NCBI GenBank assembly: GCA_016794735.1
Contig: JAEUJK010000195.1
Location: 1 to 30,400 of the forward strand
DNA length: 30,400 nt
DNA from: Gemmatimonadota bacterium
GTDB taxonomy: Bacteria; Gemmatimonadota; Gemmatimonadetes; Gemmatimonadales; Gemmatimonadaceae
Direction: 5' to 3'
Shown here: positions 1,784 through 30,400 of the stretch, in pieces
Layout: every line of letters starts with the position of its first letter
How positions within the stretch are numbered: the first letter of the stretch is position 1
The notes under the pieces: generated by a model
What the model saw: only the letters and a program-made list of their open reading frames with translations
Databases searched by the model: none
What the model was told of the DNA's origin: nothing
Translations under genes and position numbers: made by a program

Positions 1784-2269
1784 TCACGGGATCAGCGTCG
1801 CGGTCGCGATACACGCGAGTCCCTCGCCGCGACCGACCCAGCCCATCCCCTCGTTGGTCTTGGCCTTCACGTTCACGTGCCCCGCCGGGATGCCTAACGC
1901 GCCGGCGACGCGCGCGGCGATCGCATCGCGGTGCGGCCCGATCTTCGGCGACTCGGCGATCACCGTCACGTCGACATGGTCCACCCGCAGCCGTTGCTCG
2001 TGCCGCACGCGGTGCACCGCCTGCTCGAGCATGTCGATGGAGTCGCGCCCCTTGTTGGCCGCGTCGGTATCCGGGAACATCGACCCAATGTCGCCAAGGC
2101 ACGCCGCACCCAGGATGGCGTCGGTGATGGCATGGCAGATCGCGTCGGCATCGGAATGCCCCACGAGGTGCCGTTCACTCGGGATTTCCACGCCACCCAG
2201 GCGCAGGGGACCGCCCGCGGCAAATCGATGGGAGTCGTACCCGATGCCGGTGCGTGGATAGAGGGTCAT
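1784..2269 (-). CDS. ispF: 2-C-methyl-D-erythritol 2,4-cyclodiphosphate synthase
   Basis: RTGIGYDSHRF, GHSDADAICHAITDAILGA, GDIGSMFPDTD and VNVKAKTNEGMG motifs; 161 aa. Confidence 0.96.
   Translation of the reverse strand: MTLYPRTGIGYDSHRFAAGGPLRLGGVEIPSERHLVGHSDADAICHAITDAILGAACLGDIGSMFPDTDAANKGRDSIDMLEQAVHRVRHEQRLRVDHVDVTVIAESPKIGPHRDAIAARVAGALGIPAGHVNVKAKTNEGMGWVGRGEGLACIATATLIP
1892..1899 (-). repeat. Iterated octamer CGTTAGGC, copy 1 (inside ispF, GCG TTA GGC)
   Basis: Plus strand reads gcctaacg at 1892-1899. Confidence 0.7.
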
Positions 2270-2270
2270 G

Positions 2271-3308
2271 TCAGGCCGCCGCGGGGTGTTCGATGGGGAT
2301 GATCGAGTAGTCCTGCCGACGACGCGCGGGGGTGAACCCGGCGTCGCGGATGAGTCGTTCCAGCTCTTCCGTGGTCGTGCGGTGCGTGGTGTTGGCCGCG
2401 CTCACGACGTTCTCCTCGATCATGAGCGAGCCGAAGTCGTTGCAGCCAAACCGGAGCGCCAGCTGGCCGACCTTCATGCCCATGGTCACCCAGCTGCTCT
2501 GGAGGTTCGGCACGTTGTCGAGCACGATGCGCGAGATCGCGACCGTGCGGAGGTAGTCGGTCGACCCGGTCTTCTCCATGTGGGAGAACTCCGGCGTGTT
2601 CTCGGGCTGGAGGGGCCACGTGATGAAGGCGGTGAAGCCCCCGGTCCGCGCCTGCACGTCGCGCACCCGCTGCAGGTGCTCGATCCGTTCGGCCAGCGTC
2701 TCGCCGAGGCCGTACATCATCGTGACGGAGGTCTTCATCCCGGCCTGGTGCGCCAGCTCCATGATCTCGAGCCAGCGATCGGCCCCCGCCTTCTTGGGGG
2801 CGGCGATGTCGCGCACCCGCTGGACGAGGATCTCACCGCCGCCGCCGGGGATCGAGTCGAGTCCCGCCGCCTTGAGCTCGCGGATCACGTCGACCGCGTC
2901 CATCCGGAAGACCTGGGAGAAGAAGTCGACCTCGCTGGGGCTGAACCCGTGGATGTGGATCGGGTGGTTCCGCTTGATGTAGCGCAGCAGGTCGAGGTAC
3001 CACTCGAACGGGATGTACGGATTGTGCCCGCCCTGGATCAGGATCTGCACGCCGCCTAACGCCTTGGTCTCCTCGATCTTCTGGCCGATCTGCTCGAACG
3101 ACAGCGTGTACCCCTCGGTGTGCTTGGGGCGACGGTAGAAGGCGCAGAACCCGCAATCCGCCACACAGACGTTCGTGTAGTTGATGTTGCGGTCGACGAT
3201 GTAGGTGACGGTGTTGTGCGGGTGCTTCGCGGCGCGCACGCGGTCCGCCTCGAGACCGAGCTCGAGGAGCGGGGCGTTGGCGTAGAAGTCGAGCAGGTCG
3301 CGGTTCAT
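2271..3308 (-). CDS. mqnC: Cyclic dehypoxanthinyl futalosine synthase (radical SAM)
   Basis: NINYTNVCVADCGFCAFYR (CxxxCxxC), GGVQILIQGGHNP, DSIPGGGGEIL, QSSWVTMG and NDFGSLMIEENVVSAA; adjacent to mqnA and mqnE. Confidence 0.92.
   Translation of the reverse strand: MNRDLLDFYANAPLLELGLEADRVRAAKHPHNTVTYIVDRNINYTNVCVADCGFCAFYRRPKHTEGYTLSFEQIGQKIEETKALGGVQILIQGGHNPYIPFEWYLDLLRYIKRNHPIHIHGFSPSEVDFFSQVFRMDAVDVIRELKAAGLDSIPGGGGEILVQRVRDIAAPKKAGADRWLEIMELAHQAGMKTSVTMMYGLGETLAERIEHLQRVRDVQARTGGFTAFITWPLQPENTPEFSHMEKTGSTDYLRTVAISRIVLDNVPNLQSSWVTMGMKVGQLALRFGCNDFGSLMIEENVVSAANTTHRTTTEELERLIRDAGFTPARRRQDYSIIPIEHPAAA
3054..3061 (-). repeat. Iterated octamer CGTTAGGC, copy 2 (inside mqnC, GCG TTA GGC)
   Basis: Plus strand reads gcctaacg at 3054-3061. 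Confidence 0.7.
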
Positions 3309-3375
3309 GGGACGGGAAGCTCCGCGGAAGTCACGTCGAAAGGTAGTCGTTGTCGCGCTGGTGATGCCGACGCAT
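3305..3375 (-). other. Two chained putative mini-ORFs bridging mqnA and mqnC (3375-3331 MRRHHQRDNDYLST; 3334-3305 VTSAELPVP)
   Basis: TGATG overlap with the mqnA stop, GTGA overlap between the two mini-ORFs, and ATGA overlap with the mqnC start. No evidence that they are translated. Confidence 0.2.
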
Positions 3376-4211
3376 CACGCCGCGAGGAACTGCAACGTCG
3401 TCGAGGGCACCTTGCCGGCGGCGCTCAGGCGTCCGAAGAACTCCGACAGCCCGGCCAGGTACGGCAGGCCAAGGCCGTAGTCGAGTCCCTCGAAGTAGCG
3501 TCGGCATTCGCTCGCAGGGACGCCCGTCTGCGCGGCCGCCTGCTCGCTGAGCTCCTCCAGGTGCTGCAATCCCCAGTCACGGGAGGTGAGCAGGGCGGCA
3601 TGCGTGGTGAGCGCCTCGCGGGGTGGCGTGGTGCGCTGCGCGACCCAGACGGCAAAGACGAAGGGGTGACCGGTCCAGCGTCGCCACTCCTCGCCGAGGT
3701 CATAGACGTAAGGGTATGCCGGGCGTCCGTCAGCCCCGCCGCGCGATTGCAGCAGGAGGGCGGCGTCGCCGATCACGAGCCGCGCGTCGTGTTCGTCGCG
3801 GGCAAAGGCATCGAGGTCCGCCATCTCGGCATCGCCCGGGGAGAATTCGGGACGTGCCTTCCACACCTCGTCGAACAGCAGCTCGAGGAGCGCGACGCTG
3901 GTCATCGACGAACGGCTGAGCATCACGCGGCGGCCACCAAGCTCCGACGCCGGGCGACGCGAGAAGAGCATCACCGAACGCACCGGGCCGTTGCACGAGA
4001 TGGCGAGGTCCGGCAGCAGGAGGTATCGCGCCGCGTCCCGCGCGTACTCGACGGCGGACACCACCGAGATGTCGAGCTGGCCGGCGGCCATGCGGGCATT
4101 GAGCAGGCTCGGGATCCCGGTGACCAGCTCGCCCTCCAACGACACGATGCCGCGATCGATCGCCCCGTAGACCGGGAAGCAATTGATGTAGGGAATGCGG
4201 CCGACGCGCAC
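3375..4211 (-). CDS. mqnA: Chorismate dehydratase (futalosine pathway)
   Basis: GTG start; MRVGRIPYINCFP, GPVRSVMLFS, SSMTSVALL, ARLVIGDAAL and YDLGEEWRRWTGHPFVFAVW motifs. Confidence 0.92.
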   Translation of the reverse strand: MRVGRIPYINCFPVYGAIDRGIVSLEGELVTGIPSLLNARMAAGQLDISVVSAVEYARDAARYLLLPDLAISCNGPVRSVMLFSRRPASELGGRRVMLSRSSMTSVALLELLFDEVWKARPEFSPGDAEMADLDAFARDEHDARLVIGDAALLLQSRGGADGRPAYPYVYDLGEEWRRWTGHPFVFAVWVAQRTTPPREALTTHAALLTSRDWGLQHLEELSEQAAAQTGVPASECRRYFEGLDYGLGLPYLAGLSEFFGRLSAAGKVPSTTLQFLAA

Positions 4212-4214
4212 CGG

Positions 4215-5375
4215 TCAGTCCGCGGCGACCCGCGGGAGGTCGTCGTCGAAGTGGCGGATCACCTGGTAGAACGCATCGCGTTCGGCCGGGATGCGCTGGG
4301 CGCCGCGAATGAGCTTGAGGATCTCGGCGAGCGGCAGCCCCTGCGGCGTGGTGGCACCCACCGCGTGGTAGACCTTCTCGCGCACCACTGTGCCTTCCAT
4401 GTCGTTCACGCCAAAGGCGAGCGCGACCTGCGACAGGAACGGCGTGACCATGATCCAGTGCGACTTGATGTGCCGGAAGTTGTCGAGGAACAGGCGCCCC
4501 ACGGCGAGGACACGCAGGTCGTCGAACCCCGTCGTCGCCCTGCCCTCGCGTTGCAGCCGCTTGCCCAGCTCGTTGTCGTCCGGATGGTACGCCAGCGGGA
4601 TGAACGCCAGGTAGCCGCCCGTCTCGTCCTGCAGGTCGCGCAGCATGGACAGGTGGGCGACGCGATCCTCCATCGTCTCGACGTGCCCGTACAGCATCGT
4701 GCAGTTGGAGCGGATGCCCAGCTCGTGTGCGGCGCGATGGACGGCGATGTAGTCGGCGCCGCCGAGCTTGCGGTCGGCGATCTGTTCGCGCACGGCCGCG
4801 CTGAACGTCTCGGCGCCGCCCCCGGGCATCGTATCGAGCCCGGCCTCACGCAACGCCGTGAGCACTTCCTTCCACGACAACTTCTCGATGCGCGCGAGGT
4901 GCGCGATCTCCACCGCCGTGAGGGCCTTGATGTGCACGTGCGGGAACTCGCGCTTGAGCGCGCGGAACATCGTCGTGTAGTACTCCAGCCCCGCCTGCAT
5001 GTCGAGGCCGCCCACGATGTGGAACTCGCGCGTCAGCCCGGTGCGCGCAGGCTCCGCCTCGGCGAGGACCTGGTCCAGCGTGTACCGATAGGCGCCGTCT
5101 TCCTTGGGCAACCGGGCGTAGCCGCAGAAGACGCAGGTCTTCCGCAGCACGCAGATGTTCGTGGGGTTGATGTGCTGGTTGGCCGCGAAGGTGACCACGC
5201 GGCCGTTCTTCGCCTGGTTGACGGCGTCCGCGAGGTGTCCGAGGCCCAGCAGGTCCGGCGTCCGGAACAGCGCCAGGGCGTCCGCGGTGTCGAGCCGCGT
5301 GCCCTGCGCCACCTTCTCGGCGATCGGGAGGAGGCTCGCGTCCCGGATGCGGTCGACATCCACCGCCGGTTTCAC
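4215..5375 (-). CDS. mqnE: Aminofutalosine synthase (radical SAM)
   Basis: HINPTNIC, REFHIVGG, HIKALTAVEI, MPGGGAE, SNCTMLYGH and HIKSHWIM motifs. Start placed at GTG 5375, just after the fabF stop; the ORF-track start at 5429 lies inside fabF. The Cys motif is Cx5Cx2C. Confidence 0.88.
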   Translation of the reverse strand: MKPAVDVDRIRDASLLPIAEKVAQGTRLDTADALALFRTPDLLGLGHLADAVNQAKNGRVVTFAANQHINPTNICVLRKTCVFCGYARLPKEDGAYRYTLDQVLAEAEPARTGLTREFHIVGGLDMQAGLEYYTTMFRALKREFPHVHIKALTAVEIAHLARIEKLSWKEVLTALREAGLDTMPGGGAETFSAAVREQIADRKLGGADYIAVHRAAHELGIRSNCTMLYGHVETMEDRVAHLSMLRDLQDETGGYLAFIPLAYHPDDNELGKRLQREGRATTGFDDLRVLAVGRLFLDNFRHIKSHWIMVTPFLSQVALAFGVNDMEGTVVREKVYHAVGATTPQGLPLAEILKLIRGAQRIPAERDAFYQVIRHFDDDLPRVAAD

Positions 5376-5382
5376 GGGCGCC

Positions 5383-6627
5383 TCAGGCGACAAACTGGCG
5401 AATGACGAGCGACACGTTGTGCCCGCCAAAGCCGGCGCTGTTCGACAACGCCGCCCGGATCACCCGCGACTTCGGCGTGTTGGGCGTGAAGTCGAGCGGA
5501 CCGCAGTCCGGATCGGGCGTCGCGTAGTTGATCGTCGGCGGCACCACCTGGTCGCGCAGCGCGAGGATGCAGGCGATGGCCTCGATGGCGCCGGCCGCCC
5601 CCAGCATGTGCCCCGTCGCCGACTTGGTGGACGACACGCTGAGCCGCGCCGCGTCATCACCGAACACCCGCATGATCGCCTTCGCCTCATTCGGGTCGTT
5701 CATCGGCGTCGACGTGCCGTGGGCATTCACGTAGTCGATGTCGGCCGTGGTGAGGCCCGCGTCCTTGAGCGCGCGCCGCATCGACCGCTGGAGTCCCTCG
5801 TGTTCCTCCGGCTGGCCGGTGAGGTGGTACGCGTCGCCAGTGGCGCCGTAGCCCACGACCTCGCCGTAGATGCGCGCGCCGCGCGCCTGCGCATGCTCCA
5901 GCGCCTCGAGGATGAGGATCCCTGCCCCTTCACCCATCACGAACCCGTCCCGGTCCTTGTCGAATGGACGCGAGGCACGGGCGGGATCGTCGTTGCGTTC
6001 CGACAGCGCCTTCATGTTCGCGAAGCCGCCGATCGCCATCGGCGTGACCGAGGCTTCCGCGCCACCACAGACCATCACGTCCGCGTCGCCGTACTGGATC
6101 GTGCGCATCGCGTCGCCGATGGCGTGCGCGCTCGTCGAGCAGGCGGAGATGGTGGCGTAATTTGGTCCCTTGGCCCCCACGCGCATCGACACCACGCCCG
6201 ACGCGATGTCCGCGATGAAGGTGGGGATGAAGAACGGGGAAATCTTGGACGGGCCCAGCTCGCGATAGACGTCGTGCTGTTCCTCGAAGCTCTTCAGGCC
6301 ACCTACGCCCGATCCGACGATGACGCCCGTCATCTCGGGGTCGAAGGAGCCGGCGCTGAGGCCGGCGTCGGCCATGGCCTGGAGCGACGCCGCGACCGCG
6401 TACTGCGTGTACGCGTCGGAGCGCTTGGCCTCCTTGCGGTCCATGTACTGCAGCGGATCGAATCCCTTCACCTCGCACGCGAAGCGCACCGGGAACCGGG
6501 CGGCGTCGAACTTGGTGATCGGTCCGCCGCCCGAGGCTCCGTCCAGCAGGGCGCGCCACGTCGACGCCACGTCGAGTCCCACCGACGTGACGGCTCCGAG
6601 GCCCGTAATGACGACGCGGCGCTTCAT
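5383..6627 (-). CDS. fabF: 3-oxoacyl-ACP synthase II
   Basis: MKRRVVITGLG; catalytic C-H-H triad in SACSTSAHA, NAHGTST and GHMLGAAG. Confidence 0.97.
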   Translation of the reverse strand: MKRRVVITGLGAVTSVGLDVASTWRALLDGASGGGPITKFDAARFPVRFACEVKGFDPLQYMDRKEAKRSDAYTQYAVAASLQAMADAGLSAGSFDPEMTGVIVGSGVGGLKSFEEQHDVYRELGPSKISPFFIPTFIADIASGVVSMRVGAKGPNYATISACSTSAHAIGDAMRTIQYGDADVMVCGGAEASVTPMAIGGFANMKALSERNDDPARASRPFDKDRDGFVMGEGAGILILEALEHAQARGARIYGEVVGYGATGDAYHLTGQPEEHEGLQRSMRRALKDAGLTTADIDYVNAHGTSTPMNDPNEAKAIMRVFGDDAARLSVSSTKSATGHMLGAAGAIEAIACILALRDQVVPPTINYATPDPDCGPLDFTPNTPKSRVIRAALSNSAGFGGHNVSLVIRQFVA

Positions 6628-6628
6628 C

Positions 6629-6871
6629 TTAGGCGGACGGCCCCTTCTCCTTGAGGTACTTCAACGCATCGCCCACGGTGCGGAGTTTCTCCGCGTCTTC
6701 GTCCGGGATGTCGATGTTGAACTGCTTCTCGAACTCCATGACCAGTTCGACGATGTCGAGGCTGTCAGCGCCAAGGTCTTCGATGAAGCTGGCCTCGTCC
6801 GTGAGCTTCTCGCGCTCGACGCCCAGCTCCTTTTCGATGATGTCCTTGACCTTCTCGCTCATGTCCGCCAT
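6629..6871 (-). CDS. acpP: Acyl carrier protein
   Basis: [13 protein letters not shown] phosphopantetheine site. Start placed at ATG 6871, which has an upstream GGAG Shine-Dalgarno and gives 80 aa; the ORF-track extension to 6991 overlaps fabG. Confidence 0.96.
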
Positions 6872-6924
6872 GTCGTGCTCCGTTGGGGCAAAGGGGTGGT
6901 TCGAAGATAATGGAATATCGCGAC

Positions 6925-8606: not shown

Positions 8607-8607
8607 G

Positions 8608-10604: not shown

Positions 10605-10607
10605 GCG

Positions 10608-10790: not shown

Positions 10791-10815
10791 GGTGGTGCCG
10801 GGAAAGGAAGTGGTC

Positions 10816-10823
10816 GCCTAACG
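10816..10823 (-). repeat. Iterated octamer CGTTAGGC, copy 3 (supplies the TAG stop of yceD)
   Basis: Plus strand reads gcctaacg at 10816-10823. Confidence 0.7.
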
Positions 10824-11327
10824 CGCGTCGCCGCCAACGGGCGACAAGGCGTGCCAGCGTGGATCAACTGCGGGGGTGCACCCGCAGGCGCCGAGGTTCT
10901 TGTTGGCGCCGCATGATGGACAGAGACCCAGGCAGGCGTCCGAGCACACCATGTAGGACGGGGCGGCCAGCAACCACTCTTCGCGGATGGCTGGCCGAAG
11001 GTCCAGTTCACGTTCGCGGGCGTCGATCAGGTAGACGTCCGCCTCGTCTGCTTCATCGGAGGAACCATCGACCAGCAACAGGTGCAGGTCGGCCTTCACC
11101 GGTTCTTCCACGGGCTCGAGGCAACGACGGCAGGATGCCGTGGCAACGCCCTCGAGATGTCCGCTGAAGTAGAAGCGTCCCGGCCCAGCCGCAGAGACAC
11201 GCCCCGTCACCCGGAGCGCCCCACGCGGGCGAGCATCACCTTCTTCCCAGATCGGATCGGACTCCGGGAGTTCGCCGTCGACCCGGGATGCCTGGGCCGC
11301 GAGGTCGCGAAGGTCAAAGGACAACAT
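10818..11327 (-). CDS. yceD: YceD/DUF177 family protein (large ribosomal subunit accumulation)
   Basis: CRRCLEP, ELDLRPAIREEWLLAAP and CSDACLGLCPSCGAN...DPRW motifs; conserved position directly upstream of rpmF. Confidence 0.88.
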   Translation of the reverse strand: MLSFDLRDLAAQASRVDGELPESDPIWEEGDARPRGALRVTGRVSAAGPGRFYFSGHLEGVATASCRRCLEPVEEPVKADLHLLLVDGSSDEADEADVYLIDARERELDLRPAIREEWLLAAPSYMVCSDACLGLCPSCGANKNLGACGCTPAVDPRWHALSPVGGDAR

Positions 11328-14019: not shown

Positions 14020-14048
14020 AAGCTATCGGAGGCCCAGACCCCCATCAA
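14020..14048 (-). promoter_or_regulatory. Possible sigma70-type promoter for sucCD
   Basis: Minus strand TTGATG (14048-14043), 17-nt spacer, TAGCTT (14025-14020). A weak consensus match. Confidence 0.3.
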
Positions 14049-16510
14049 GGCGCGCGCTGGGTCCCCCGCAACAGCTGCCCGAGGAGGCTCCAGCTCTCCC
14101 CAAATGCCACCATGTCACGACGACTGAGAGCGTCGTCCATGCGTGCATACAACTCGGCCACCCGTCGCCGGAATTCCTCCGGACCCAGCGGCCCATCGTT
14201 CGTCGCGGCCTCCGGAAAGCCCAGTGCGGCCTCCAGGGTTCGCCCGGCCCGGGCTCCACCGGGGCTCGCGACCGCCACGCTCCGGATCAGGGGGGCGCGG
14301 TCAGGGAGCCATTGGTACAACACCTGGACCGGGATCAGGGCGCCGTCGTGAAGCCCGAGGTGCACCGGGCCGCGGACGAGACGCCCGTTTTCGCCCCGAG
14401 CGGACGCCGCGACCGAGTCGAGTGAACGACGCAGCGACTCGACGACCTCGCGCCACCGGAGGTCGCTCCCGCTGAGCGATACCCACGCCGTGCGCACATC
14501 CGCCCCACCCGATCCCATCACCACGCCGCGCAAGCGATCCGTGGGATCCACGACCGGATACGCGACGGCGAGGCGCTGCCGCGGGCCATCGAGGAATGGC
14601 GCGAGCCCGGGGAATGCAAAGCCGGAATCGGCCCCGGTGTCGCGCGCGAGCTGCGACGCGGGCACGAGGGCATCCCCACGGCGACCAAACCGGGAAAAGG
14701 CGCGCGCCTGCGTGAGGACCGCATCGACCGGCGGCGGGAGCTGGCGCAGCAGGTCGTCAGGGGCTGCGCTCGCCTGGACGAACAACCGCGGAAAGCGTCG
14801 GTACCAGCTGCGCGCCATCGGGTCCGCATCGGGGGGCCGGATGGCGAAGACCCTCCCCGTATGCGCGTTCACGATCGCGACGCCCGCGTGCTTGAAGTAG
14901 CTCACGTCGTCCGATTCGAGGACGATGGGCTCGGCGAGCGGGTAGTGACTGGACGCGCTGTACAGGTGCACCGCCCACCACAGCGAGTCGCGTGCGACCA
15001 CCGGCAGGACGCGATTGCCCAGCACGAAGAACGGGAAGATCCGCTCCACGCGGCTGCGCACGTCGCGGATGCGGACCAATCGTGCCGGGCCAAAGGTCGA
15101 ACGTGCCTTGAGCAGCCGAGGGTTCTGCAACCCCCAGGCGTGGATGATGCGCGACGTCGCGGTCTCGAGCGATGGCGCGGCGATCTCGTTCACGGAGTCG
15201 GAGACGACACTTCCCTCCGGCAGGCTGTCGCCGACGGCCACGGGCGGCAGGTGGCGCGTGCGCTCGAGGAAGTCCGTCTGGTGCGGCAGCTGGCCGTCGC
15301 TTCCGCTGCGCATCGCCGCGAGCGCCACGTCCGGTCGATCCGCGACGGGTCCAACCGGGCGTTGCACCACGACCGCAAACAGCGCGCGATCGCGCTGCAG
15401 CCACCCGACACTCGCCGTGGGTTGGCCGGGCACGCCCCACGACGCGGCGGAGCGCCGGATCGCTTCCACGTCCCACACACTCAGTGCCGGCGGCGTGGCG
15501 GGTCGCGTGGTCGCCTGGATCGAGTCGCGCACATCGAGGCGCTCGACGTCAAAGGCCCGGCGCGAGAAAGCCGCGCGGGTGGCGCGATACGGCCGGTCAC
15601 GCAGTTCCGCGTCACTGGGTTGCAGGTAGCGGGCGGCAAGGACCGGAGCGAGTTGGCGCATGCCGAGTGAAGCGACCGCCCAGAGGATGAGCGCGGCCGC
15701 AACGACGCGCAGCTGGCCGACCCACCCTGCCCACGCGACGAGCATGGCGCAGACCACGCTCCCCAGCGCGAGGACGAGTCGCCCGGGGATTCCCACGCGA
15801 TGGTCCAGGGCCAGGAAGGCGCGCCCGGTTCCCTCGCCGTCGAGGAGCAGGCCGATCGCGTCCAGGCGATACCGCCAACCCATCAGGAGCAGGAGAAGGC
15901 TCAGCAGGAGCAGCAGGTGCCGGCGCACATGTCCCGTGGCGCGCAGCCGGCCCTCGGACCAGCGCAGGCTCGGCGTCAGGGCATACAGCAGGATGACCAC
16001 GGCGCCGATCAGCAGCAGCGCCAGCGTCGCCCACGAGTGGAACGCTTCCTCGATCGGGAGCCAGTAGACCCAGAAGGCGAGGTCGTAGCCGAAGTATGGC
16101 TCACTCTCGCGGAACGCCTCCCCGTGTCGCACCAGGTCGAGCGAGATCCAGTCTCCCTGTGGCAGCGCGAGCACCGCGCCTAACGCCACGGAGATCACGA
16201 GCACGACCAGGACGAGGGAGCGTCCCGGCAACTCCTCCGCGAACTCGTGCCCGCCGATGCGCCGCGGCAGGATCACCGAGACGATCGAAAACCGGACGGC
16301 GTAGAGGTTCAGGAAGCAGAGCGTGGCCCCGCCGAGGAACGCCGCGCCGCGGAGCAGCAACAGGTTGGACGCCGCGGCCCAGAACACCGGGGCGGCGTCG
16401 AGCGACTCATACCATCGGTACTCGACGAGCCAACCGGCCAGCACACGGCCCACCAGCAGACATGCGGCGACCGAGAGCCCGACGATGACCCCGATCCGTC
16501 GTCTGGTCAC
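14045..16510 (-). CDS. UPF0182 family membrane protein (divergent)
   Basis: 821 aa, GTG start. Multi-TM N-terminal third with EYRWYESL, EPYFGYDLAFWVYWLP and TRAAF; soluble C-terminal region with YSASSHYPLAEP. This resembles the UPF0182 architecture; no HMM was run. Confidence 0.72.
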   Translation of the reverse strand: MTRRRIGVIVGLSVAACLLVGRVLAGWLVEYRWYESLDAAPVFWAAASNLLLLRGAAFLGGATLCFLNLYAVRFSIVSVILPRRIGGHEFAEELPGRSLVLVVLVISVALGAVLALPQGDWISLDLVRHGEAFRESEPYFGYDLAFWVYWLPIEEAFHSWATLALLLIGAVVILLYALTPSLRWSEGRLRATGHVRRHLLLLLSLLLLLMGWRYRLDAIGLLLDGEGTGRAFLALDHRVGIPGRLVLALGSVVCAMLVAWAGWVGQLRVVAAALILWAVASLGMRQLAPVLAARYLQPSDAELRDRPYRATRAAFSRRAFDVERLDVRDSIQATTRPATPPALSVWDVEAIRRSAASWGVPGQPTASVGWLQRDRALFAVVVQRPVGPVADRPDVALAAMRSGSDGQLPHQTDFLERTRHLPPVAVGDSLPEGSVVSDSVNEIAAPSLETATSRIIHAWGLQNPRLLKARSTFGPARLVRIRDVRSRVERIFPFFVLGNRVLPVVARDSLWWAVHLYSASSHYPLAEPIVLESDDVSYFKHAGVAIVNAHTGRVFAIRPPDADPMARSWYRRFPRLFVQASAAPDDLLRQLPPPVDAVLTQARAFSRFGRRGDALVPASQLARDTGADSGFAFPGLAPFLDGPRQRLAVAYPVVDPTDRLRGVVMGSGGADVRTAWVSLSGSDLRWREVVESLRRSLDSVAASARGENGRLVRGPVHLGLHDGALIPVQVLYQWLPDRAPLIRSVAVASPGGARAGRTLEAALGFPEAATNDGPLGPEEFRRRVAELYARMDDALSRRDMVAFGESWSLLGQLLRGTQRAP
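16178..16185 (-). repeat. Iterated octamer CGTTAGGC, copy 4 (inside the UPF0182-like gene, GCG TTA GGC)
   Basis: Plus strand reads gcctaacg at 16178-16185. Confidence 0.7.
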
Positions 16511-17928: not shown

Positions 17929-19455
17929 TCATGGAACGGCCGCGGTCTGGTTGGCCGGGGGCGTGGCGGTTACGGCGCCGCCTAACGTGGAGTGCTGCTT
18001 GACCAGTTTGACCAGCGGATCGGGCCACGCGCCGAAGAACAGGATCACCACGACCGAGGCCCCGATGACGAGGCGCGTCATGCCGGTGGCGGCCGGCAGC
18101 GGCGCGGCGCCCGCGGGGCGCGGCTTCATGAACATCGCGATGATCACACCGAGGTAGTAGCCCGCGGAGATCGTCGTGGTCAGGACGAGGATGACGGCGA
18201 GCCGCGCCTGGGGCGCCGGCGCCTGCATCGCCGCCTGCAGCACGTACCACTTGGCGAAGAAGCCCATCCCCCCGAAGATCGGGAAGCCGAGCAGCGCCAG
18301 CATGAAGACGGTCATCGCCACCGCGAGCCCCGGCCGCTCGTGCCAGAGGCCGTGGTAGTCCTCGATGTGCTCCCGCGGCTGTCCCGCCGAGCCTAACGCC
18401 AGCATCACGGCAAAGGCGCCCATGGTCGCCAGGGTGTAGGCGAGCAGGTAGAACACGAAGGCCGTGGCCGCCTGGGCCGTGCCCGCCGCAAGCGCCACCA
18501 GGATGAAGCCGGTGTGCGCAATGCTCGAGTAGGCCAGCATGCGCTTGAGGTTGCGCTGCTGCAGCGCCACCACGTTGCCCACGACCATCGTGAGCGCCGC
18601 GAGCCACCACACGGCCTTGTGCCACTCCGAGTACGCCCCGGGGAATGCCTCCAGCCAGACGCGCAGCAGGGCGGCAAACGCCCCGGCCTTCACCCCGGCC
18701 GCCATGTAGCCGGTGATCGGCGTCGGGGCACCTTCGTACACGTCAGGCGCCCACATGTGGAACGGAGCAGCCGCCACCTTGAACGCAAAGCCGACGAGCA
18801 GCAACGCGATGCCGACGAGCAACATCGGCGTCCGCGCCAGCTCATACGTGCCGATGCGCTCGGCGATCAGGGTGAGGTTCGTCGTGCCGGTCGCGCCGTA
18901 CACCAGGGCAATGCCGTACAGCAGGAACCCGGTCGAGAAGGCGCCGAGCAGGAAGTACTTCAGGGCAGACTCCGCACTCCGGTTGGAGCGGCGGTTCAAC
19001 CCGGCGAGCACATATACCGCAATCGACATCAGCTCGATGCCGAGGAACAGCACCATCAGGTCGCGCGCCGCCGCCATGAGCATCATGCCCGACGTCGCGA
19101 ACAGCAGGAGCACATGCGCTTCCGCCGTGTGGAGTCCCTCGCGGGCATTGTATTCCACCGCCAGCGCCAGCGTGATGAGCGTGGCCACGAGGAACACGAC
19201 GCTGCTGCCCCAGCGGAACGGATCGACCGCCACGACGCCCGGACCTGCCGTCGCGCCGCGTTGCGCCATCACGAGCACGTAGCCGAGGACACCGGCCGTC
19301 ACCAGCATGCTGCCCAGGCCCACGGTGCGCTGATGCTCCGCGCTTTCCGGGCGCCACGCAGACATCAGCATCAGGACCATCGCGCCGGTCATCAGCGCGA
19401 GCTCCGGCCCGATGGCGGCGGCGAGCTGGCCCGGCATGGAGAGATCGAACGTCAT
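17929..19455 (-). CDS. nuoN: NADH-quinone oxidoreductase subunit N
   Basis: LFLGIELMS, ESALKYFLLG, GFAFKVAAAPFHMWAPDVYEGAP and KRMLAYSSIAH motifs. Confidence 0.96.
   Translation of the reverse strand: MTFDLSMPGQLAAAIGPELALMTGAMVLMLMSAWRPESAEHQRTVGLGSMLVTAGVLGYVLVMAQRGATAGPGVVAVDPFRWGSSVVFLVATLITLALAVEYNAREGLHTAEAHVLLLFATSGMMLMAAARDLMVLFLGIELMSIAVYVLAGLNRRSNRSAESALKYFLLGAFSTGFLLYGIALVYGATGTTNLTLIAERIGTYELARTPMLLVGIALLLVGFAFKVAAAPFHMWAPDVYEGAPTPITGYMAAGVKAGAFAALLRVWLEAFPGAYSEWHKAVWWLAALTMVVGNVVALQQRNLKRMLAYSSIAHTGFILVALAAGTAQAATAFVFYLLAYTLATMGAFAVMLALGSAGQPREHIEDYHGLWHERPGLAVAMTVFMLALLGFPIFGGMGFFAKWYVLQAAMQAPAPQARLAVILVLTTTISAGYYLGVIIAMFMKPRPAGAAPLPAATGMTRLVIGASVVVILFFGAWPDPLVKLVKQHSTLGGAVTATPPANQTAAVP
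17980..17987 (-). repeat. Iterated octamer CGTTAGGC, copy 5 (nuoN 3' end, ACG TTA GGC)
   Basis: Plus strand reads gcctaacg at 17980-17987. Confidence 0.7.
18391..18398 (-). repeat. Iterated octamer CGTTAGGC, copy 6 (inside nuoN, GCG TTA GGC)
   Basis: Plus strand reads gcctaacg at 18391-18398. Confidence 0.7.
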
Positions 19456-23236: not shown

Positions 23237-23529
23237 CAGCCCTTGAGGAGATTGATGTTCTGGAGGTCCACCGTCTGGCGGTGGCGGAAGATCGAGATGA
23301 TGATGGCCAGCCCGACGGCCGCTTCCGCGGCCGCGACGGTCATCACGAACACGACGAACACCTGGCCCGTCGCCCCGTACAACTTCGAGAGGGCGACAAA
23401 CGACAGGTTGACGGCGTTGAGCATCAGCTCGACGCACATGAAGATCACGATCGCGTTGCGGCGCGTGAGCACGCCAATGACGCCGATCGTGAACAGGACG
23501 GCCGACAGGGCCAGCGCTTCGGCGATCAT
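23236..23529 (-). CDS. nuoK: NADH-quinone oxidoreductase subunit K
   Basis: [19 protein letters not shown] and [11 protein letters not shown] motifs; 97 aa. Confidence 0.96.
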
Positions 23530-25848: not shown

Positions 25849-27407
25849 GACGCCACCCCCGCCGCCTGGCCGGCAATCGGCAGCCCACGCAACCCGAGCT
25901 GGTCGTAACTCAGGCCGGCGAACGCGGGGTTCGAGGTCGCGAGGTCCTGGAACACGTCGCGGGCGAGGAAGAAGGCCGTCGACTCACCCATGGCCTGCAA
26001 CACGTCGGCGAGCACGTACCAGCCGGGCCGTGCCAGCCCCGGCGCGGCCTTGGCCTGCAGGAACCGCTGGACGCGGCCGCGCAGGTTGGTGAACGATCCT
26101 TCTTCCTCCACCACCGTGCAGGTGGGGAGGACGACGTCGGCGCGCGCGAGCCCGGCCGGCATGGTGCTCGACAGCACGATGACCGCCGAGGCGCGTCCCG
26201 CCATCTCGAGGTCGGCGCGCGAGAGCGCATGGTCCGCAATGATCAGGGCGTCACCGGCCTGCAGCCCCGCCAGCGGGGTTTCATTGCGCGTGAACCCGAC
26301 GAGTTCCGCCCCGCGCCCGTTGGCGGCGCGATCCGCCCGCAGCGCGAGATCCGTGACCCCCGGCAGCGGTGCCTCGATGCCCTGGTCCACCCGGAACGAC
26401 CCGACCCCGTTGGTCTTCTTCACGAGGCGGGACAGGAGATGCAGTGTTTCGTTGGAGCAATTGGGTGACGCGAGCACGTACGCGCGCTTGCCCTTGAGCA
26501 CCCGGACGGCGGCGTCGATGGCCACTTCCCAGTCGACGGCCTCGTGTCCCCGGGGGCCGAGGATCGTGGGGACCTCGAGACGGTCCCGGCGGTTCAGGCC
26601 GCGGTAGTTCATGCGACCGTGGTCGCACATGAAGAACTCGTTCACCGCCTCGTTCGACCGCGGGCGGAAGCGCATGACGACGTTGTCGCGCGTCTCGACG
26701 ATGATGTTGCACCCCTGCGAGCACCCGGTGCACACCGACGCGGTGCGATCGAGTTCCCATGCGCGCGCCTTGTTGAGGAAGTCCTTCGACAGCAGCGCGC
26801 CCACCGGGCAGAGGTCGACGACGTTCGCGGCCCACGGGTGCGTGAGGTCCTTCCCCTCGAACTTCCCGATGTGGGCGCGGTCGCCGCGTTCCGTGACATT
26901 GAGGACGGTGTCCTTCGCGACGTCATCCATGAAGCGCACGCACCGGGTGCACAGGATGCACCGGTTGGGCACGTACATCACGTCGCCGCCGAAGTCCTCG
27001 ACCGGGTTGAAGCGCTTGGGTTCGCGATACCGCGAGTCCGCCCGCCCTTCCTGGTACGTGTAGTCCTGCAATTCGCACTCGCCGGACTGGTCGCAGATCG
27101 GGCAATCCAGCGGGTGGTTGATGAGCAGCATCTCGAGCACGCCCTTGCGGGCCTCGCGCGCCTTCTCCGAGTGCACGTGGACGACCTGCCCTTCGGCCAC
27201 GGCCGTGGCGCACGCTGGCGCGAGTTTGGGCGACTTCTCGACTTCGACGAGGCACATCCGGCACACGCCCGCCACCGGGAGTCCCGGGTGGTAGCAGTAG
27301 TGCGGGATCAGCACCCCGGCCTGCTTCGCGGCCTCGACGAGGTTCGTGCCGGGTGGCACCGCCACCGGGCGTCCCTCGATGGTGAGGTTGACCATCGGCG
27401 CCGTCAT
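25845..27407 (-). CDS. nuoG: NADH-quinone oxidoreductase subunit G (short form, 520 aa)
   Basis: Start ATG 27407 has an ATGA overlap with nuoF. Cluster ligands: N1b (IPHYCYH...GVCRMCLVE...PAC), N5 (HPLDCPICDQSGEC), N4 (CILCTRC...CPVG) and N7-like (CTGCSQGC...CDHG). Confidence 0.94.
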   Translation of the reverse strand: MTAPMVNLTIEGRPVAVPPGTNLVEAAKQAGVLIPHYCYHPGLPVAGVCRMCLVEVEKSPKLAPACATAVAEGQVVHVHSEKAREARKGVLEMLLINHPLDCPICDQSGECELQDYTYQEGRADSRYREPKRFNPVEDFGGDVMYVPNRCILCTRCVRFMDDVAKDTVLNVTERGDRAHIGKFEGKDLTHPWAANVVDLCPVGALLSKDFLNKARAWELDRTASVCTGCSQGCNIIVETRDNVVMRFRPRSNEAVNEFFMCDHGRMNYRGLNRRDRLEVPTILGPRGHEAVDWEVAIDAAVRVLKGKRAYVLASPNCSNETLHLLSRLVKKTNGVGSFRVDQGIEAPLPGVTDLALRADRAANGRGAELVGFTRNETPLAGLQAGDALIIADHALSRADLEMAGRASAVIVLSSTMPAGLARADVVLPTCTVVEEEGSFTNLRGRVQRFLQAKAAPGLARPGWYVLADVLQAMGESTAFFLARDVFQDLATSNPAFAGLSYDQLGLRGLPIAGQAAGVAS

Positions 27408-28723
27408 CGAGCCACCACCTGCGGCACGGCGTGGATCGTCGTGCGCTTGATCAACGCCTCGAACTCGGGGCGGAAGTACTGCAGCGCGGACGACACCACG
27501 GTGGCGCACGAGTCGGAGAGGACGCAGATCGTCTTTCCCGTCATGTTGTCGCCGATCGAGAGCAGCGTGTCCAGGTCCTCGGCCGTGCCGTCACCGGCGC
27601 AGATCCGCTCGAGGATCTTGGTCGTCCACGCGGTCCCTTCGCGGCACTGCGTGCACTGGGCGCAGGACTCATGCGCGTAGAAGCGCGCGAGGCGTGCGGC
27701 CTGCCGCGGGATCGACTGCGCATCGTCCATCACGATGCACCCGGCCGAGCCGAGCATCGTGCCGGCGGCCACCATGCCTTCGTAGTCCATCACGGCCGCG
27801 GCGGCCTGCTCCCACGGGATCACCGGCACCGACGACCCACCCGGGATCACCGCCTTGATCTTCCGTCCCTTGGGCGCGCCGCCACACACATCCTGCAGGA
27901 ACTCGCCAAACGGGAACCCCATCTCGACTTCGTAGTTGCCCGGGCGCGCGATGTTGCCGCACACGCTCCAGAGCTTGGTCCCGGTGGACTTGGGGTTGTC
28001 CGGCCGCGACATCTTCTTGTACCAGTCGGCCCCGCGATTGAGGATGTGCGGGACGGCGGTCAGCGTCTCGACGTTGTTGATCGTGGTCGGCTTGCCGAAC
28101 AGGCCGGCCACCGCCGGGAACGGGGGCTTGATGCGCGGGTTGCCGCGCTTGCCCTCGATCGAGTTCATCAGCGCGGTTTCTTCACCGCAGATGTAGGCAC
28201 CGGCGCCCTTGTGCACCCAGACGTTGACCGTCTTGCCGGAGCCCATGGCGTTCTTGCCGATGACGCCGGCCGCGCGCGCGTCCGCGCACGCGCGCTCCAT
28301 CACCTGCAGCGGCTCGGTGAACTCGCCGCGGATGTAGATGAAGCAGTCCTCGGCGCCGATCGCGTACGCGCCGATCGCGCAGCCCTCGATGAGGGCGTGC
28401 GGCGTCCAGCGCATGATCTCGCGATCCTTGAAGGTGCCCGGCTCGGACTCGTCGGCGTTGCAGCACAGGTAGTGCGGCTTGCCGTCGCCGAGCTTCATGA
28501 ACGACCACTTGAGCCCAGTCGGGAAGCCGGCACCGCCGCGACCCCGGAGCCCGGACTCCTTCACCACGTTCTGGATGGCGACCGGGTCCGTACCCAGGGC
28601 ATTGGCGAGGGCCTGGTACCCCCCGCGCTTCTTCCACCCGTCAACCGAACGCGCGTCCGCGTCGCCGAAATGCGTCGACAGGACCTGCGTCTCGCGCGGG
28701 TGGGGTGTGTGGGGAAATCCCAT
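27404..28723 (-). CDS. nuoF: NADH-quinone oxidoreductase subunit F
   Basis: GLRGRGGAGFPTGLKW, NADESEPGTFKDR, GAGAYICGEETAL and ESCAQCTQCREG...C motifs. Confidence 0.97.
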   Translation of the reverse strand: MGFPHTPHPRETQVLSTHFGDADARSVDGWKKRGGYQALANALGTDPVAIQNVVKESGLRGRGGAGFPTGLKWSFMKLGDGKPHYLCCNADESEPGTFKDREIMRWTPHALIEGCAIGAYAIGAEDCFIYIRGEFTEPLQVMERACADARAAGVIGKNAMGSGKTVNVWVHKGAGAYICGEETALMNSIEGKRGNPRIKPPFPAVAGLFGKPTTINNVETLTAVPHILNRGADWYKKMSRPDNPKSTGTKLWSVCGNIARPGNYEVEMGFPFGEFLQDVCGGAPKGRKIKAVIPGGSSVPVIPWEQAAAAVMDYEGMVAAGTMLGSAGCIVMDDAQSIPRQAARLARFYAHESCAQCTQCREGTAWTTKILERICAGDGTAEDLDTLLSIGDNMTGKTICVLSDSCATVVSSALQYFRPEFEALIKRTTIHAVPQVVAR

Positions 28724-28770
28724 TCTCTAGACGGCAGACGGTAGGCAGCGGGCGGCGGGTGCCGACGCAA

Positions 28771-28778
28771 CGTTAGGC
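28771..28778 (+). repeat. Iterated octamer CGTTAGGC, copy 7 (opposite orientation; supplies the TAA stop of nuoE)
   Basis: Plus strand reads cgttaggc at 28771-28778. Confidence 0.7.
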
Positions 28779-29315
28779 ATAGCGCTTCAGGACCTCCGGC
28801 ACGGTCTCGGGCGTGACCGACTCGAGGAAATCGGCGTTCACCATGACCGGCGTGGCAAACCCGCACGCGCCGAGGCACTCGACCTCGATCACGGTGTAAC
28901 GCCCATCCGCGGACGTCACCCCCAACTCGCCGCAGCCGGTCTTCTCCAGGAACGCCTTCACCACGTCCTCCGCGCCGCAGACGTGGCAGGGGGAGGTCGT
29001 GCACACCTGGATGAAGTACTTCCCGACCGGGTGCTGGTGGTACATGGTGTAGAAGGTCACCACCCCCTTCACGTACGCCGGGGTGACGCCGAGGACCGTG
29101 GCCACTTCGGCCATCCCTTCCTCGCTGACCCACCCGCGGGCTTCCTGCACCATCCAGAGCGCGGGCAGGAGGCCGGCCTGGCGCGTGGGATACCGACCGA
29201 GCAGGTCTTCGAGGCGCGCCTTCATCTCCCCGACAAACACGGGAGTGTAGGGCTCGCCGCCGTGGTGACCGGCCTTGATCGTCGCGCCGCCGCTGGCTGA
29301 GGGGCCGTGGCTCAT
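28773..29315 (-). CDS. nuoE: NADH-quinone oxidoreductase subunit E
   Basis: Start ATG 29315 has an upstream GGGGAG (180 aa). LLPALWMVQEARGW, VVTFYTMY, and [2Fe-2S] ligands CTTSPC...ECLGAC. Confidence 0.94.
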   Translation of the reverse strand: MSHGPSASGGATIKAGHHGGEPYTPVFVGEMKARLEDLLGRYPTRQAGLLPALWMVQEARGWVSEEGMAEVATVLGVTPAYVKGVVTFYTMYHQHPVGKYFIQVCTTSPCHVCGAEDVVKAFLEKTGCGELGVTSADGRYTVIEVECLGACGFATPVMVNADFLESVTPETVPEVLKRYA

Positions 29316-29415
29316 CGGTCGATCTCCCCGGTCCGGGCGGTCGTGCTCGCGCGATTCGCGCTGCTCATCGGTCGATCTCTCCCATGACGATGTCAATGCT
29401 CGCGTTGATCGCGAT
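29310..29415. repeat. Degenerate 53-bp tandem duplication of the nuoD 3' end / nuoE start junction
   Basis: Units 29415-29363 and 29362-29310 are identical at 36 of 53 positions in a hand-counted ungapped alignment. The terminal 17 bp (GAGATCGACCGATGAGC on the minus strand) are perfect. Confidence 0.85.
29312..29368 (-). CDS. Putative 18-aa relay mini-ORF, MSSANRASTTARTGEIDR
   Basis: Starts in an ATGA overlap with the nuoD stop and ends in an ATGA overlap with the nuoE start. Translation is unproven. Confidence 0.4.
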   Translation of the reverse strand: MSSANRASTTARTGEIDR

Positions 29416-30400
29416 GACGTCGGACAACAGGTGTCCTTCCACCATCTTCGGGATCGCGGACAGGTTCACGTAGGACGGCGGACGGATGCGCCAGCGTACC
29501 GGCTTGGAGCTGCCGTCGGACACCATGTAGTAGCCCTTCTCGCCCTTCGGGCTCTCCACGGCGACATACGCCTCACCGGCCGGCGGGCGCGGGCCTTCCA
29601 TCACCTGCTTGAAGTGATGGATCATCGACTCCATCTCGCTCGTCGCCTTGGACTTCGGCGGCAGGATGACGCGTGCGTCGTCCACGTTGATCGGGCCATC
29701 CGGCAACCGCTTCGCCGCCTGCTCGAGGATGCGCACCGACTGCCGCAACTCCTCCATGCGCACGAGGAAGCGATCGTACACGTCGCCCGCGCTGCCCACC
29801 GGGACCTCGAAGTCGTAGGTCTCGTAGTCGAGGTACGGGAAGTCCTTGCGCACGTCGTACGCGACGCCAGCCGCGCGCACCATCGGGCCCGACAAGCCGT
29901 AGTTCACGGCATCGGTCGCATTCAACGCCCCGATCCCGATCGTGCGGCCCACCCAGATCCCGTTGCGGGTGACCATCTTGTCGACTTCGGCGATGGTCCG
30001 CGGGAAGGTCTTGATGAACTCCGCGAGCTGGTCGGTCCACCCATCCGGGATGTCCGCCGCCATCCCGCCCACGCGAGTGAGCGACGTGGTCAGGCGTGCG
30101 CCGATCCAGGCCTCGAGCAGGTTGTACACGCGCTCGCGCTCCTGGAAGGCCCACAGGAACGGCGTGAAGGCGCCGATGTCGATGCAGGTCGTGCCCAGCC
30201 AGACCAGGTGCGAGATGATCCGCGACAGCTCCATCGCGATAACCCGGAGCACCGTGCACCGCGGCGTGATCTCGATCCCGAAGAGCCGCTCCGCGCCTAA
30301 CGCGAAGGCGACGTTGTTCCCGGGGGAGTTGAGGTAGTCCTCACGATCCGTCCACGGGATGATCTGGTTGTACTGGCGATACTCGCCGATCTTCTCGAAC
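29365..30400 (-). CDS. nuoD: NADH-quinone oxidoreductase subunit D (3' part only; 5' end lies outside the window)
   Basis: The frame is open to the window edge (FEKIGEYRQYNQIIPWTDREDYLN...). ELSRIISHL, ERERVYNLLE..IGARLT, VESPKGEKG and C-terminal IDIVMGEIDR motifs. Confidence 0.96.
   Translation of the reverse strand, partial: FEKIGEYRQYNQIIPWTDREDYLNSPGNNVAFALGAERLFGIEITPRCTVLRVIAMELSRIISHLVWLGTTCIDIGAFTPFLWAFQERERVYNLLEAWIGARLTTSLTRVGGMAADIPDGWTDQLAEFIKTFPRTIAEVDKMVTRNGIWVGRTIGIGALNATDAVNYGLSGPMVRAAGVAYDVRKDFPYLDYETYDFEVPVGSAGDVYDRFLVRMEELRQSVRILEQAAKRLPDGPINVDDARVILPPKSKATSEMESMIHHFKQVMEGPRPPAGEAYVAVESPKGEKGYYMVSDGSSKPVRWRIRPPSYVNLSAIPKMVEGHLLSDVIAINASIDIVMGEIDR
30295..30302 (-). repeat. 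Iterated octamer CGTTAGGC, copy 8 (inside nuoD, GCG TTA GGC)
   Basis: Plus strand reads gcctaacg at 30295-30302. Confidence 0.7.

Follow-up and report, generated by a model that had tools for sequence, protein, structure and literature searches.

The 30,400-nt window analysed here (the whole stretch, positions 1-30,400 of contig JAEUJK010000195.1, assembly GCA_016794735.1) comes from an uncultured soil bacterium of the Gemmatimonadaceae (Gemmatimonadota; genome code G000), and it raises the question of why one short word, CGTTAGGC, is written into its genes again and again. The window contains eight exact copies, compared to 0.38 expected from dinucleotide-preserving shuffles, and none of 100 shuffles attained eight. 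All eight had been located in an earlier note on this DNA and were recovered at the same coordinates, seven on the minus strand and one on the plus strand, namely:

1892..1899, minus strand: GCG-TTA-GGC (Ala-Leu-Gly), in frame in the IspF/YgbB gene (1784-2269, minus)
3054..3061, minus strand: GCG-TTA-GGC (Ala-Leu-Gly) in a radical-SAM MqnC/CofH-like gene (2271-3308, minus)
10816..10823, minus strand: CGT-TAG, the final Arg codon and TAG stop of the YceD gene (10818-11327, minus)
16178..16185, minus strand: GCG-TTA-GGC in a UPF0182 membrane-protein gene (14045-16510, minus)
17980..17987, minus strand: ACG-TTA-GGC (Thr-Leu-Gly) in a gene for a complex I antiporter-like (NuoN-like) subunit (17929-19455, minus)
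18391..18398, minus strand: GCG-TTA-GGC in the same NuoN-like subunit gene (17929-19455, minus)
28771..28778, plus strand, the sole plus copy: on the gene strand GCC-TAA, the final Ala codon and TAA stop of NuoE (28773-29396, minus)
30295..30302, minus strand: GCG-TTA-GGC in NuoD (29365-30399, minus)

As the earlier note had described, six copies lie in frame as NCG-TTA-GGC (IspF/YgbB, MqnC-like, UPF0182, NuoN-like twice, and NuoD), two supply stop codons (the YceD TAG at 10816 and the NuoE TAA at 28771), and each of the 8 GTTAGG hexamers in the window sits inside the full 8-mer. Its count of in-frame TTA codons needs a small correction: six are indeed within the word, but the ORF calls give a total of 8 rather than 7, with an extra TTA at 25908. 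The purine that it placed in front of the word is present at position -1 of all eight window copies; it is not a general extension, because just 60% of the copies in the genome have a purine there (G 46%, T 25%).

The excess extends to the genome as a whole. The 4.15-Mb genome G000 holds 1100 copies of CGTTAGGC, about 25 times chance, at a density of 1 per 3.8 kb, with relatives going up to 1 per 0.8 kb, and the word is by a wide margin the most over-represented octamer of this genome (z ~162). Expected counts were 153 at Markov order 0, 54 at order 1, 33 at order 2 and 42 at order 3, so that the genome-wide check proposed in the earlier note returned a strong excess (1100 vs. 33-54 for orders 1-3). 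It should be noted that the maximal-order Markov expectation masks the signal because every sub-word is equally enriched; it was therefore dropped and orders 0-3 were used.

The same conclusion is reached from codon usage. TTA makes up 21.2% of the Leu codons of G000 in [A/T/S/P]-Leu-Gly contexts vs. 0.38% elsewhere, a 55-fold difference, and 57% of all its TTA codons lie inside CGTTAGGC; the equal TTA rate in Ala-Leu-Gly and other contexts that had been proposed as a refuting outcome was not observed. Antisense copies within genes encode Pro-Asn. The word fills 19% of its possible contexts in sense and 22% in antisense, the latter figure being inflated and not absolute, because many Pro-Asn contexts arose from CGTTAGGC itself. 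It also makes 104 of the 914 TAG stops and 50 of the 380 TAA stops (11-13%), and 107 copies lie in spacers, with no concentration in spacers or terminators. Furthermore, the encoded residue differs from the orthologues of word-poor relatives at ~40% of sense sites and ~80% of antisense sites, and the word frequently imposes amino-acid changes. Its abundance is neither a codon effect nor a peptide effect; it originates at the level of DNA.

Copies of CGTTAGGC keep apart from one another. In G000, 8 gaps of less than 300 bp were seen vs. 46.7 expected from a random draw among possible contexts, and the shortage affects same-orientation and mixed-orientation pairs alike. The avoided range is ~100 bp in G032, ~150 bp in G033 and ~200 bp in G034, narrower with greater density, i.e. 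a spacing of diminishing returns. Individual sites turn over: when the orthologue check suggested in the earlier note was run on contexts conserved between two congeners, the probability of finding the word, given the word in the other genome, was 0.31 vs. 0.12, so that positions are poorly kept. One-mismatch variants are enriched 2-11 fold, in word-rich genomes only, and some enriched lineages have a CGTYAGGC dialect; CGTCAGGC equals CGTTAGGC in abundance in G421, G418 and G423 but stays at background level in G035. The base at -1 is looser in G033, and no AT-rich flanks surround the word in G000. Other words also came to our attention. TCGGCACC and TGATGCTC, seen in single loci, are further candidate lineage words, while TCGGGAAT, also taken from a single locus, reaches ~200 occurrences in each of the five genomes examined and is therefore merely a local effect.

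A worry expressed in the earlier note was that the strand of the word and the direction of the genes are inseparable. Genome-wide tests settle this matter: strand tracks gene direction alone. Per-contig residual third-position GC skew, tried as a stand-in for leading-strand identity, gave a weak association (58:42) and was judged unreliable; adjacency, majority/minority-orientation and long-contig tests were therefore used instead, and these found no replichore polarity of CGTTAGGC. Neighbouring copies lie on one strand in 70% of pairs in co-oriented genes (gene-only expectation 70%) and in 33% in opposed genes (expectation 30%), the remaining 67% of the latter being on opposite strands. Sense copies make up 82% of those in majority-orientation genes and 85% of those in minority-orientation genes. 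On a 356-kb congener contig with a terminus-like skew switch (G031:C7), 73% of the copies are on the leading strand, which equals the prediction from gene orientation, and possible sites are filled equally in the leading- and lagging-strand orientations. The strand of CGTTAGGC thus depends on gene direction and codon constraints alone. A strand skew flipping at dif regardless of gene direction, as in the KOPS/SRS guides of FtsK/SpoIIIE, was not found.

Among 401 Gemmatimonadota genomes, enrichment of CGTTAGGC is patchy and confined to one order, where it occurs in ~10 genera of the Gemmatimonadaceae and one genus of a second family, with one weakly enriched genome in a third family. Within a single genus, some genomes hold ~4000 copies vs. 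66 in another. One unpublished genome (G013) is counted only in tallies, namely those of distribution, ComEC, PilM, N4/N6, N6_Mtase, integrase, type IIG-like protein and AddAB, and it alone carries no claim. In a scan of viral-labelled contigs, most of the word-dense matches were integron cassette arrays; L159 and L211 alone combine a phage-like gene content (terminase, portal, holin) with dispersed copies, at 1.2-2 copies per kb. The central claim of the earlier note, that CGTTAGGC is a DNA-level, lineage-specific signal overriding codon choice, has held on enrichment, TTA and distribution tests. Our literature searches found neither a publication describing the word nor an account of natural transformation in any member of the Gemmatimonadota.

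We tentatively read CGTTAGGC as an orientation-free, putative "self" word resembling an uptake sequence; both uptake-sequence-like and HIP1-like behaviour, raised in the earlier note, fit the evidence. The word would be recognised on duplex DNA whichever way round it lies, with GTTAGG as its core (CGTYAGGC in some lineages), and its density, i.e. the coverage of each stretch of DNA, would be maintained rather than single sites. The likeliest mechanism would be that described for the uptake signals of Pasteurellaceae and Neisseriaceae, in which a component of DNA uptake or transformation prefers fragments bearing the word. An allele that gains a copy would then enter other cells of the lineage, and recombine there, at a higher rate, and through such biased transfer the word would spread wherever protein function allows. 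That uptake is the step at which the word is read, by a putative protein, is what we infer. The bolder form of this reading, which we advance with greater reserve, is that part of the Gemmatimonadaceae may have evolved a third uptake-sequence system, independent of those of Pasteurellaceae and Neisseriaceae and gained or lost within single genera, whose putative reader would favour exchange among kin.

Genes for the type IV pilus and for ComEC occur generally across the order Gemmatimonadales. Of 31 genomes examined, 30 have PilM, G000 among them, and 28 have ComEC; ComEC was not found in G000, a 95%-complete assembly of 906 contigs. Both are equally present in word-poor relatives, and these genes therefore account for feasibility, not specificity. 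Three of the six pilin-like ORFs of G000 were compared across word-rich and word-poor genomes, and none of them tracks CGTTAGGC.

The USS of Pasteurellaceae are enriched tens to hundreds of fold. They resemble CGTTAGGC in being short, non-palindromic, present in both orientations and mainly in genes, in few preferred frames, as well as in forcing amino-acid changes, in their even spacing, in their lineage dialects and in the enrichment of one-mismatch variants. The two differ in phylum and in the word itself, and CGTTAGGC is without AT-rich flanks and has a lower density in G000. USS also build up in the temperate phages of Pasteurellaceae (PMC6776037), and CGTTAGGC is carried on phage-like contigs; if the word-bearing phages are strictly lytic, their copies could not have been written by a transformation drive. 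The DUS of Neisseriaceae are likewise lineage-specific, form dialects and occur in hosts with type IV pili. They are 10-12 bases long, however, are concentrated in spacers and form inverted pairs in terminators, whereas CGTTAGGC avoids close pairs; they are read by the minor pilin ComP, while no ComP-like pilin of the three tested tracks CGTTAGGC.

An alternative that we consider unlikely, but the strongest of those weighed, is that CGTTAGGC is the site of an intracellular protein binding double-stranded DNA, its density being kept by selection within the cell rather than by biased transfer. Such a protein might serve nucleoid organisation, or the word might mark self against a DNA-scanning system, as discussed for HIP1. 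Indifference to orientation, regular spacing, maintained density with turnover of sites, and the phage-like contigs all fit this alternative, and a DNA-scanning machine would be at hand in a core gene pair, a 1050-aa type IIG-like methyltransferase and an SNF2 helicase, found in 30 of the 31 genomes. However, none of the proteins examined follows the distribution of the word. The type IIG-like protein, which contains the sole methyltransferase domain of G000, is found equally in word-poor genomes and has no region that is more similar among word-rich ones, and was rejected as the reader. The variation of the avoided spacing with density also argues against a fixed footprint. HIP1 (GCGATCGC) of cyanobacteria is a known parallel, being a hyper-abundant octamer in genes whose function was long obscure; its enrichment is comparable and its spacing quasi-regular (PMC5861425), and it has lately been tied to transformation (PMC5861425, PMC13756078). 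HIP1 is palindromic, has two known methyltransferases and occupies sites that are reported as conserved, whereas CGTTAGGC is asymmetric, no methyltransferase matching it was found, and its positions are poorly kept between congeners.

A by-product of sequence-specific mutation or repair bias, e.g. a methyltransferase with a very-short-patch-type nuclease converting near-matches, is improbable. Such a bias would account for the word in coding DNA, non-coding DNA and phage-like contigs alike, and for the modest enrichment of one-mismatch variants. It would act on each site independently and would not yield mutual avoidance of copies, and the change of CTC or CTG to TTA requires several different base changes. 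In addition, neither C5 methyltransferase nor Vsr was found in G000 or in most word-rich genomes; Vsr occurs in 4 of the 31 genomes and together with a C5 methyltransferase in only 3, unrelated to CGTTAGGC, which leaves Dcm/Vsr-type repair drive unsupported. G000 has no methyltransferase of the D12 class or the N4/N6 class, the latter is uncorrelated with the word among genomes, and the search for N6_Mtase as a reader gave no correlation or no match. The co-occurrence with a methyltransferase or RecBCD/AddAB that the earlier note had asked about was thus checked across genomes, and none matches the word.

We regard as quite improbable a Chi-like role, in which the word would restrain a helicase-nuclease acting on DNA ends and thereby shield self DNA and promote recombination. 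Like Chi, which is read by RecBCD or AddAB, CGTTAGGC is asymmetric, over-represented and of octamer scale; Chi is also carried by some phages, as the word is by the phage-like contigs, and 1 copy per ~3.8 kb is near the density of Chi in Escherichia coli (~1 per 4 kb). The ~73% of leading-strand copies on the long contig would point the same way, but gene orientation fully accounts for this share, and sites in the lagging orientation are filled as often. RecC was found in 0 of the 31 genomes and no PDDEXK_1 nuclease domain in G000, and AddAB-like gene pairs occur in word-poor genomes only, in none of the strongly word-rich ones. Chi-type and KOPS-type signals, both put forward in the earlier note, are unsupported, given that orientation is not under selection and that word-rich genomes yielded no RecBCD/AddAB.

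Finally, GTTAGGC/GCCTAAC is the classical attC core and inverse-core site (GTTRRRY / RYYYAAC). That the dispersed copies are read by an integron integrase or a derivative is highly improbable: GTTAGGC matches the 7-base core exactly, genuine cassette arrays of the order contain the 8-mer and account for the residual copies of word-poor genomes and of many viral-labelled contigs, and intact integrases are common (19 of the 31 genomes, including G000:C76, TIGR02249 above cut-off), but the integrase occurs in word-rich and word-poor genomes alike without correlation, is missing from G010 and present only as fragments in the densest genome (G014), the dispersed copies are single sites in housekeeping genes with no attC partner (~4 attC-like paired structures, 50-150 bp apart, among the 1100 copies of G000, where close pairs are depleted), and the equally favoured GTC dialect disrupts the conserved GTT of the core site.

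To our knowledge, sequence-specific DNA uptake is established in just two families of Proteobacteria, and what HIP1 does is only beginning to become clear. If the uptake-like reading is true, CGTTAGGC would be a third independent word, in an abundant and barely cultured soil phylum, and self-preferring DNA signals would be wider than thought. The contrast within one genus (~4000 vs. 66 copies) offers a natural route to the reader, and the word is an easy tag for linking phages, plasmids and contigs to these hosts. Analyses of codon usage, stop choice and protein evolution in these bacteria must allow for CGTTAGGC, which in G000 accounts for 57% of TTA codons and for over 10% of the TAG as well as the TAA stops. 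If the uptake reading holds, the system would have altered codons, stop codons and residues in their thousands.

The earlier note had described eight copies of CGTTAGGC in the window, and all eight were located, seven on the minus strand and one on the plus strand. The expected number is 0.38, and none of 100 dinucleotide-preserving shuffles reaches eight. As that note had read them, each GTTAGG in the window falls within the full octamer, six copies are in frame as NCG-TTA-GGC and two form stop codons. The purine at position -1 (RCGTTAGGC) is present in all eight window copies, but genome-wide it accompanies only 60%. The coding uses in the window, and a recombinase gene at its start, are:

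In frame as NCG-TTA-GGC: IspF; MqnC-like radical-SAM enzyme; UPF0182 protein; complex I antiporter-like subunit (2 copies); NuoD
10816: copy forming the TAG stop of YceD
28771, plus strand: copy forming the TAA stop of NuoE
249-1175, minus strand: XerC/D-like tyrosine recombinase (Phage_integrase and N-terminal SAM-like domain)

The enrichment holds genome-wide. The window is contig C126 of the source genome (G000), an assembly of 4.15 Mb in 906 contigs with 68.5% GC, in which the word occurs 1100 times (538 on one arbitrary strand, 562 on the other) against 153, 54, 33 and 42 expected under Markov models of order 0, 1, 2 and 3, respectively. No other octamer of G000 is nearly as over-represented as CGTTAGGC (z ~162), the runners-up being its overlapping neighbours. 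It has sharp boundaries: the flanks carry little information (G over T at -1, a purine at +1), and their three-base periodicity reflects one codon phase common to most copies. Other words were also seen. ACGGCAGA/TCTGCCGT is moderately over-represented in G000 (322 vs 146, maximal-order model), and the CTCAAGG/CCTTGAG family about 3.5-fold, which may be a codon-pair effect (Leu-Lys). Two loci of word-poor relatives (L046 and L015) have local excesses of TCGGCACC (20 kb; 13 copies, 1.5 expected) and TGATGCTC (16 kb; 11 copies, 0.9 expected); TCGGGAAT, a comparable local hit, was rejected as a lineage word since it is not lineage-specific.

Coding contexts in G000 were counted from simple GC3-based ORF calls covering 87% of the genome. 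Of the 1100 copies, 652 read xCG-TTA-GGC on the sense strand and 134 share that phase in antisense (xxG-CCT-AAC-Gxx); a further 46 lie in the remaining two open frames, 161 overlap gene ends and 107 lie in spacers. The word contains 57% of the 1150 TTA codons, and TTA makes up 21.2% of Leu codons in [A/T/S/P]-Leu-Gly against 0.38% elsewhere, the contrast in context that the earlier note had anticipated. It is carried by 19% of all [A/T/S/P]-Leu-Gly tripeptides and by 22% of compatible Pro-Asn contexts, the latter figure being an overestimate because the word itself replaces amino acids. It also forms 104 of the 914 TAG and 50 of the 380 TAA stops. The Leu codons found at orthologous positions of word-poor relatives are mostly CTC or CTG, and the amino acid differs from theirs at about 40% of sense and 80% of antisense sites (e.g. 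Ile or Met to Leu, His to Asn), which indicates that CGTTAGGC also drives protein change. The signal thus resides in the DNA, as had been proposed, and not in protein or codon usage.

The source organism is an uncultured member of the Gemmatimonadaceae. All six congeners are word-rich (700-2100 copies), while the rest of the family is patchy, most genomes being depleted below the reversed-word control. When 81 loci are placed on a NuoD tree, the word-rich ones are spread over three or more clades, and its well-supported branches require a minimum of six changes of state. Across 401 Gemmatimonadota genomes, enrichment is found in about 10 genera of Gemmatimonadaceae (up to 4469 copies), in genus g72 of a second family and, weakly, in one genome of a third (G030); none of the approximately 135 Gemmatimonadota genomes outside the order is enriched. 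State can differ even within a genus: in g39, G239, G296 and G400 each carry about 4000 copies, whereas G292 has 66. The word itself also varies. Its first C is relaxed in G033, and CGTCAGGC is as abundant as CGTTAGGC in G421, G418 and G423 (1568-1910, against controls near 300) and at background in one word-poor genome. One-mismatch variants are enriched 2-11 fold, in word-rich genomes only.

Copies avoid one another. In G000, gaps below 200 bp number 9 against 54 expected under a uniform null, and gaps below 300 bp number 8 against 46.7 under random choice among possible coding contexts. Under this context null, both same-type (4 vs 33.7) and mixed (4 vs 13.1) close pairs are depleted, and gaps of 400-1000 bp are in excess. 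The avoided range narrows with rising density, from at least 300 bp in G000 through 200 bp in G034 and 150 bp in G033 to about 100 bp in G032 (1 copy per 0.8 kb); the spacing is one of diminishing returns, not of a fixed footprint. Individual positions are only weakly kept in orthologues. Between G000 and its congener G031 (81% identical in amino acids and 47% at four-fold sites), a word in the context of one genome is matched by a word in the other in 31% of cases, versus 12% otherwise. Density is kept while sites turn over.

Among the kinds of signal considered in the earlier note, those resembling uptake sequences or HIP1 agree with this behaviour. An intracellular role of the HIP1 kind, in double-strand binding or self-marking, is conceivable but somewhat unlikely. 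That the copies are products of biased mutation or repair is improbable, since copies would not avoid one another if each site were acted upon independently. Furthermore, C5 methyltransferase and Vsr, each found in 4 of 31 genomes, are unrelated to the word. Several word-rich genomes lack N4/N6-class methyltransferases. G000 lacks a D12-class enzyme, and its sole methyltransferase domain is in a 1050-aa type IIG-like protein adjoining an SNF2 helicase (contig C378, examined as locus L257):

L257:3392-6544, minus strand: type IIG/DrmMI/PglX-like methyltransferase
L257:1272-4472, minus strand: SNF2 (DrmD-like) helicase

Of 31 genomes of the order, 30 have the methyltransferase as a single-copy core gene; its identity to the G000 protein tracks phylogeny, and no segment is more alike among word-rich genomes. 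Single-copy core status is unusual for a defence-type module such as this pair.

Seven of the eight window copies share a strand with the genes, a confounding that the earlier note had flagged; the two can now be separated, and strand tracks gene direction. Adjacent copies lie on the same strand in 176 of 251 pairs with co-oriented genes (70%; 70% under a model of gene direction only) and in 18 of 55 pairs with opposed genes (33%; model, 30%). On mixed-direction contigs, 82% of copies in majority-orientation genes are sense, as are 85% of those in minority-orientation genes. In five genomes, possible sites are filled alike for either strand; ORFs in the minority orientation differ only in being poorer in the word whichever way it points. 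In the congener, a contig of 356 kb (G031:C7; locus L083) has a point near 45 kb, resembling a replication terminus, at which both GC skew and gene direction reverse; about 80-85% of its genes run with the inferred direction of replication. The leading strand holds 73% of its copies, the share predicted when about 80% of genes are co-oriented and about 84% of copies are sense. There is thus a de facto leading-strand excess without selection for orientation, which argues against both Chi and KOPS. A Chi-like signal is also highly unlikely in view of the enzymes encoded: RecC is found in none of the 31 genomes, a PDDEXK_1 nuclease domain is lacking in G000, and AddAB-like pairs occur only in word-poor genomes. 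Each such pair consists of neighbouring ORFs of about 1050-1250 aa that both have a PDDEXK_1 domain; the pairs are present in 8 of 21 word-poor and no strongly word-rich genomes, an association that may be due to chance as the genomes are phylogenetically non-independent.

GTTAGGC and GCCTAAC are the classical attC core and inverse core, and an integron-related reading is nonetheless the least probable of all, as integrase presence is independent of word state (intact in 19 of 31 genomes) and only about 4 paired structures occur among the 1100 copies of G000. The dispersed copies were also rejected as attC sites because close pairs are depleted and because the GTC dialect (the C form of CGTYAGGC) breaks the conserved GTT. 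Integron integrase is absent from G010 and present only as fragments in the densest genome, G014. The full-length integrases (TIGR02249, above cut-off) of these 19 Gemmatimonadales genomes include G000:C76:2245-3189, and chromosomal integrons therefore appear common in the order. A viral-contig scan gave many word-dense matches, mostly cassette arrays, in which CGTTAGGC recurs every ~300-1100 bp at the ends of short ORFs, with a conserved attC-like sequence after it. Same-strand runs in word-poor genomes fit such arrays, e.g. G021:C80, which adjoins integrase fragments. Several IMG/VR contigs labelled viral are also cassette arrays. The same-strand runs identified as arrays are:

Genome contigs: G021:C80, G021:C95, G019:C3
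Other loci: L166, L206, L156, L131, L158, L164, L138

Dispersed copies are carried by two phage-like contigs:

L159: large terminase, portal protein and holin; 1.2 copies per kb
L211: large and small terminase subunits; 2.0 copies per kb

Their copies lie chiefly in antisense contexts or TAA stops and seldom in TTA codons. The Pasteurellaceae uptake signal sequence (USS) accumulates in temperate phages of that family and not in large lytic ones (PMC6776037), and the word on L159 and L211 would fit an uptake word if these phages are temperate. Among proteins of the uptake machinery, PilM (30 of 31 genomes) and ComEC (28 of 31; not found in G000) are widespread in the order, and none of three pilin-like proteins compared tracks the word. 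Among the papers listed by a full-text literature search, CGTTAGGC appeared only in primers and unrelated uses, and no competence data for Gemmatimonadota were found in the literature searched.

Taken together, the closest match is USS, which shares with CGTTAGGC the extreme enrichment of an exact short word in both orientations, few preferred reading frames, amino-acid replacement, enriched near-variants, dialects, patchy lineage distribution, phage carriage, even spacing with diminishing returns, and site turnover. On the strength of this USS-like behaviour, we tentatively suggest that CGTTAGGC may be a transformation-linked uptake word, one that would be read during DNA uptake.
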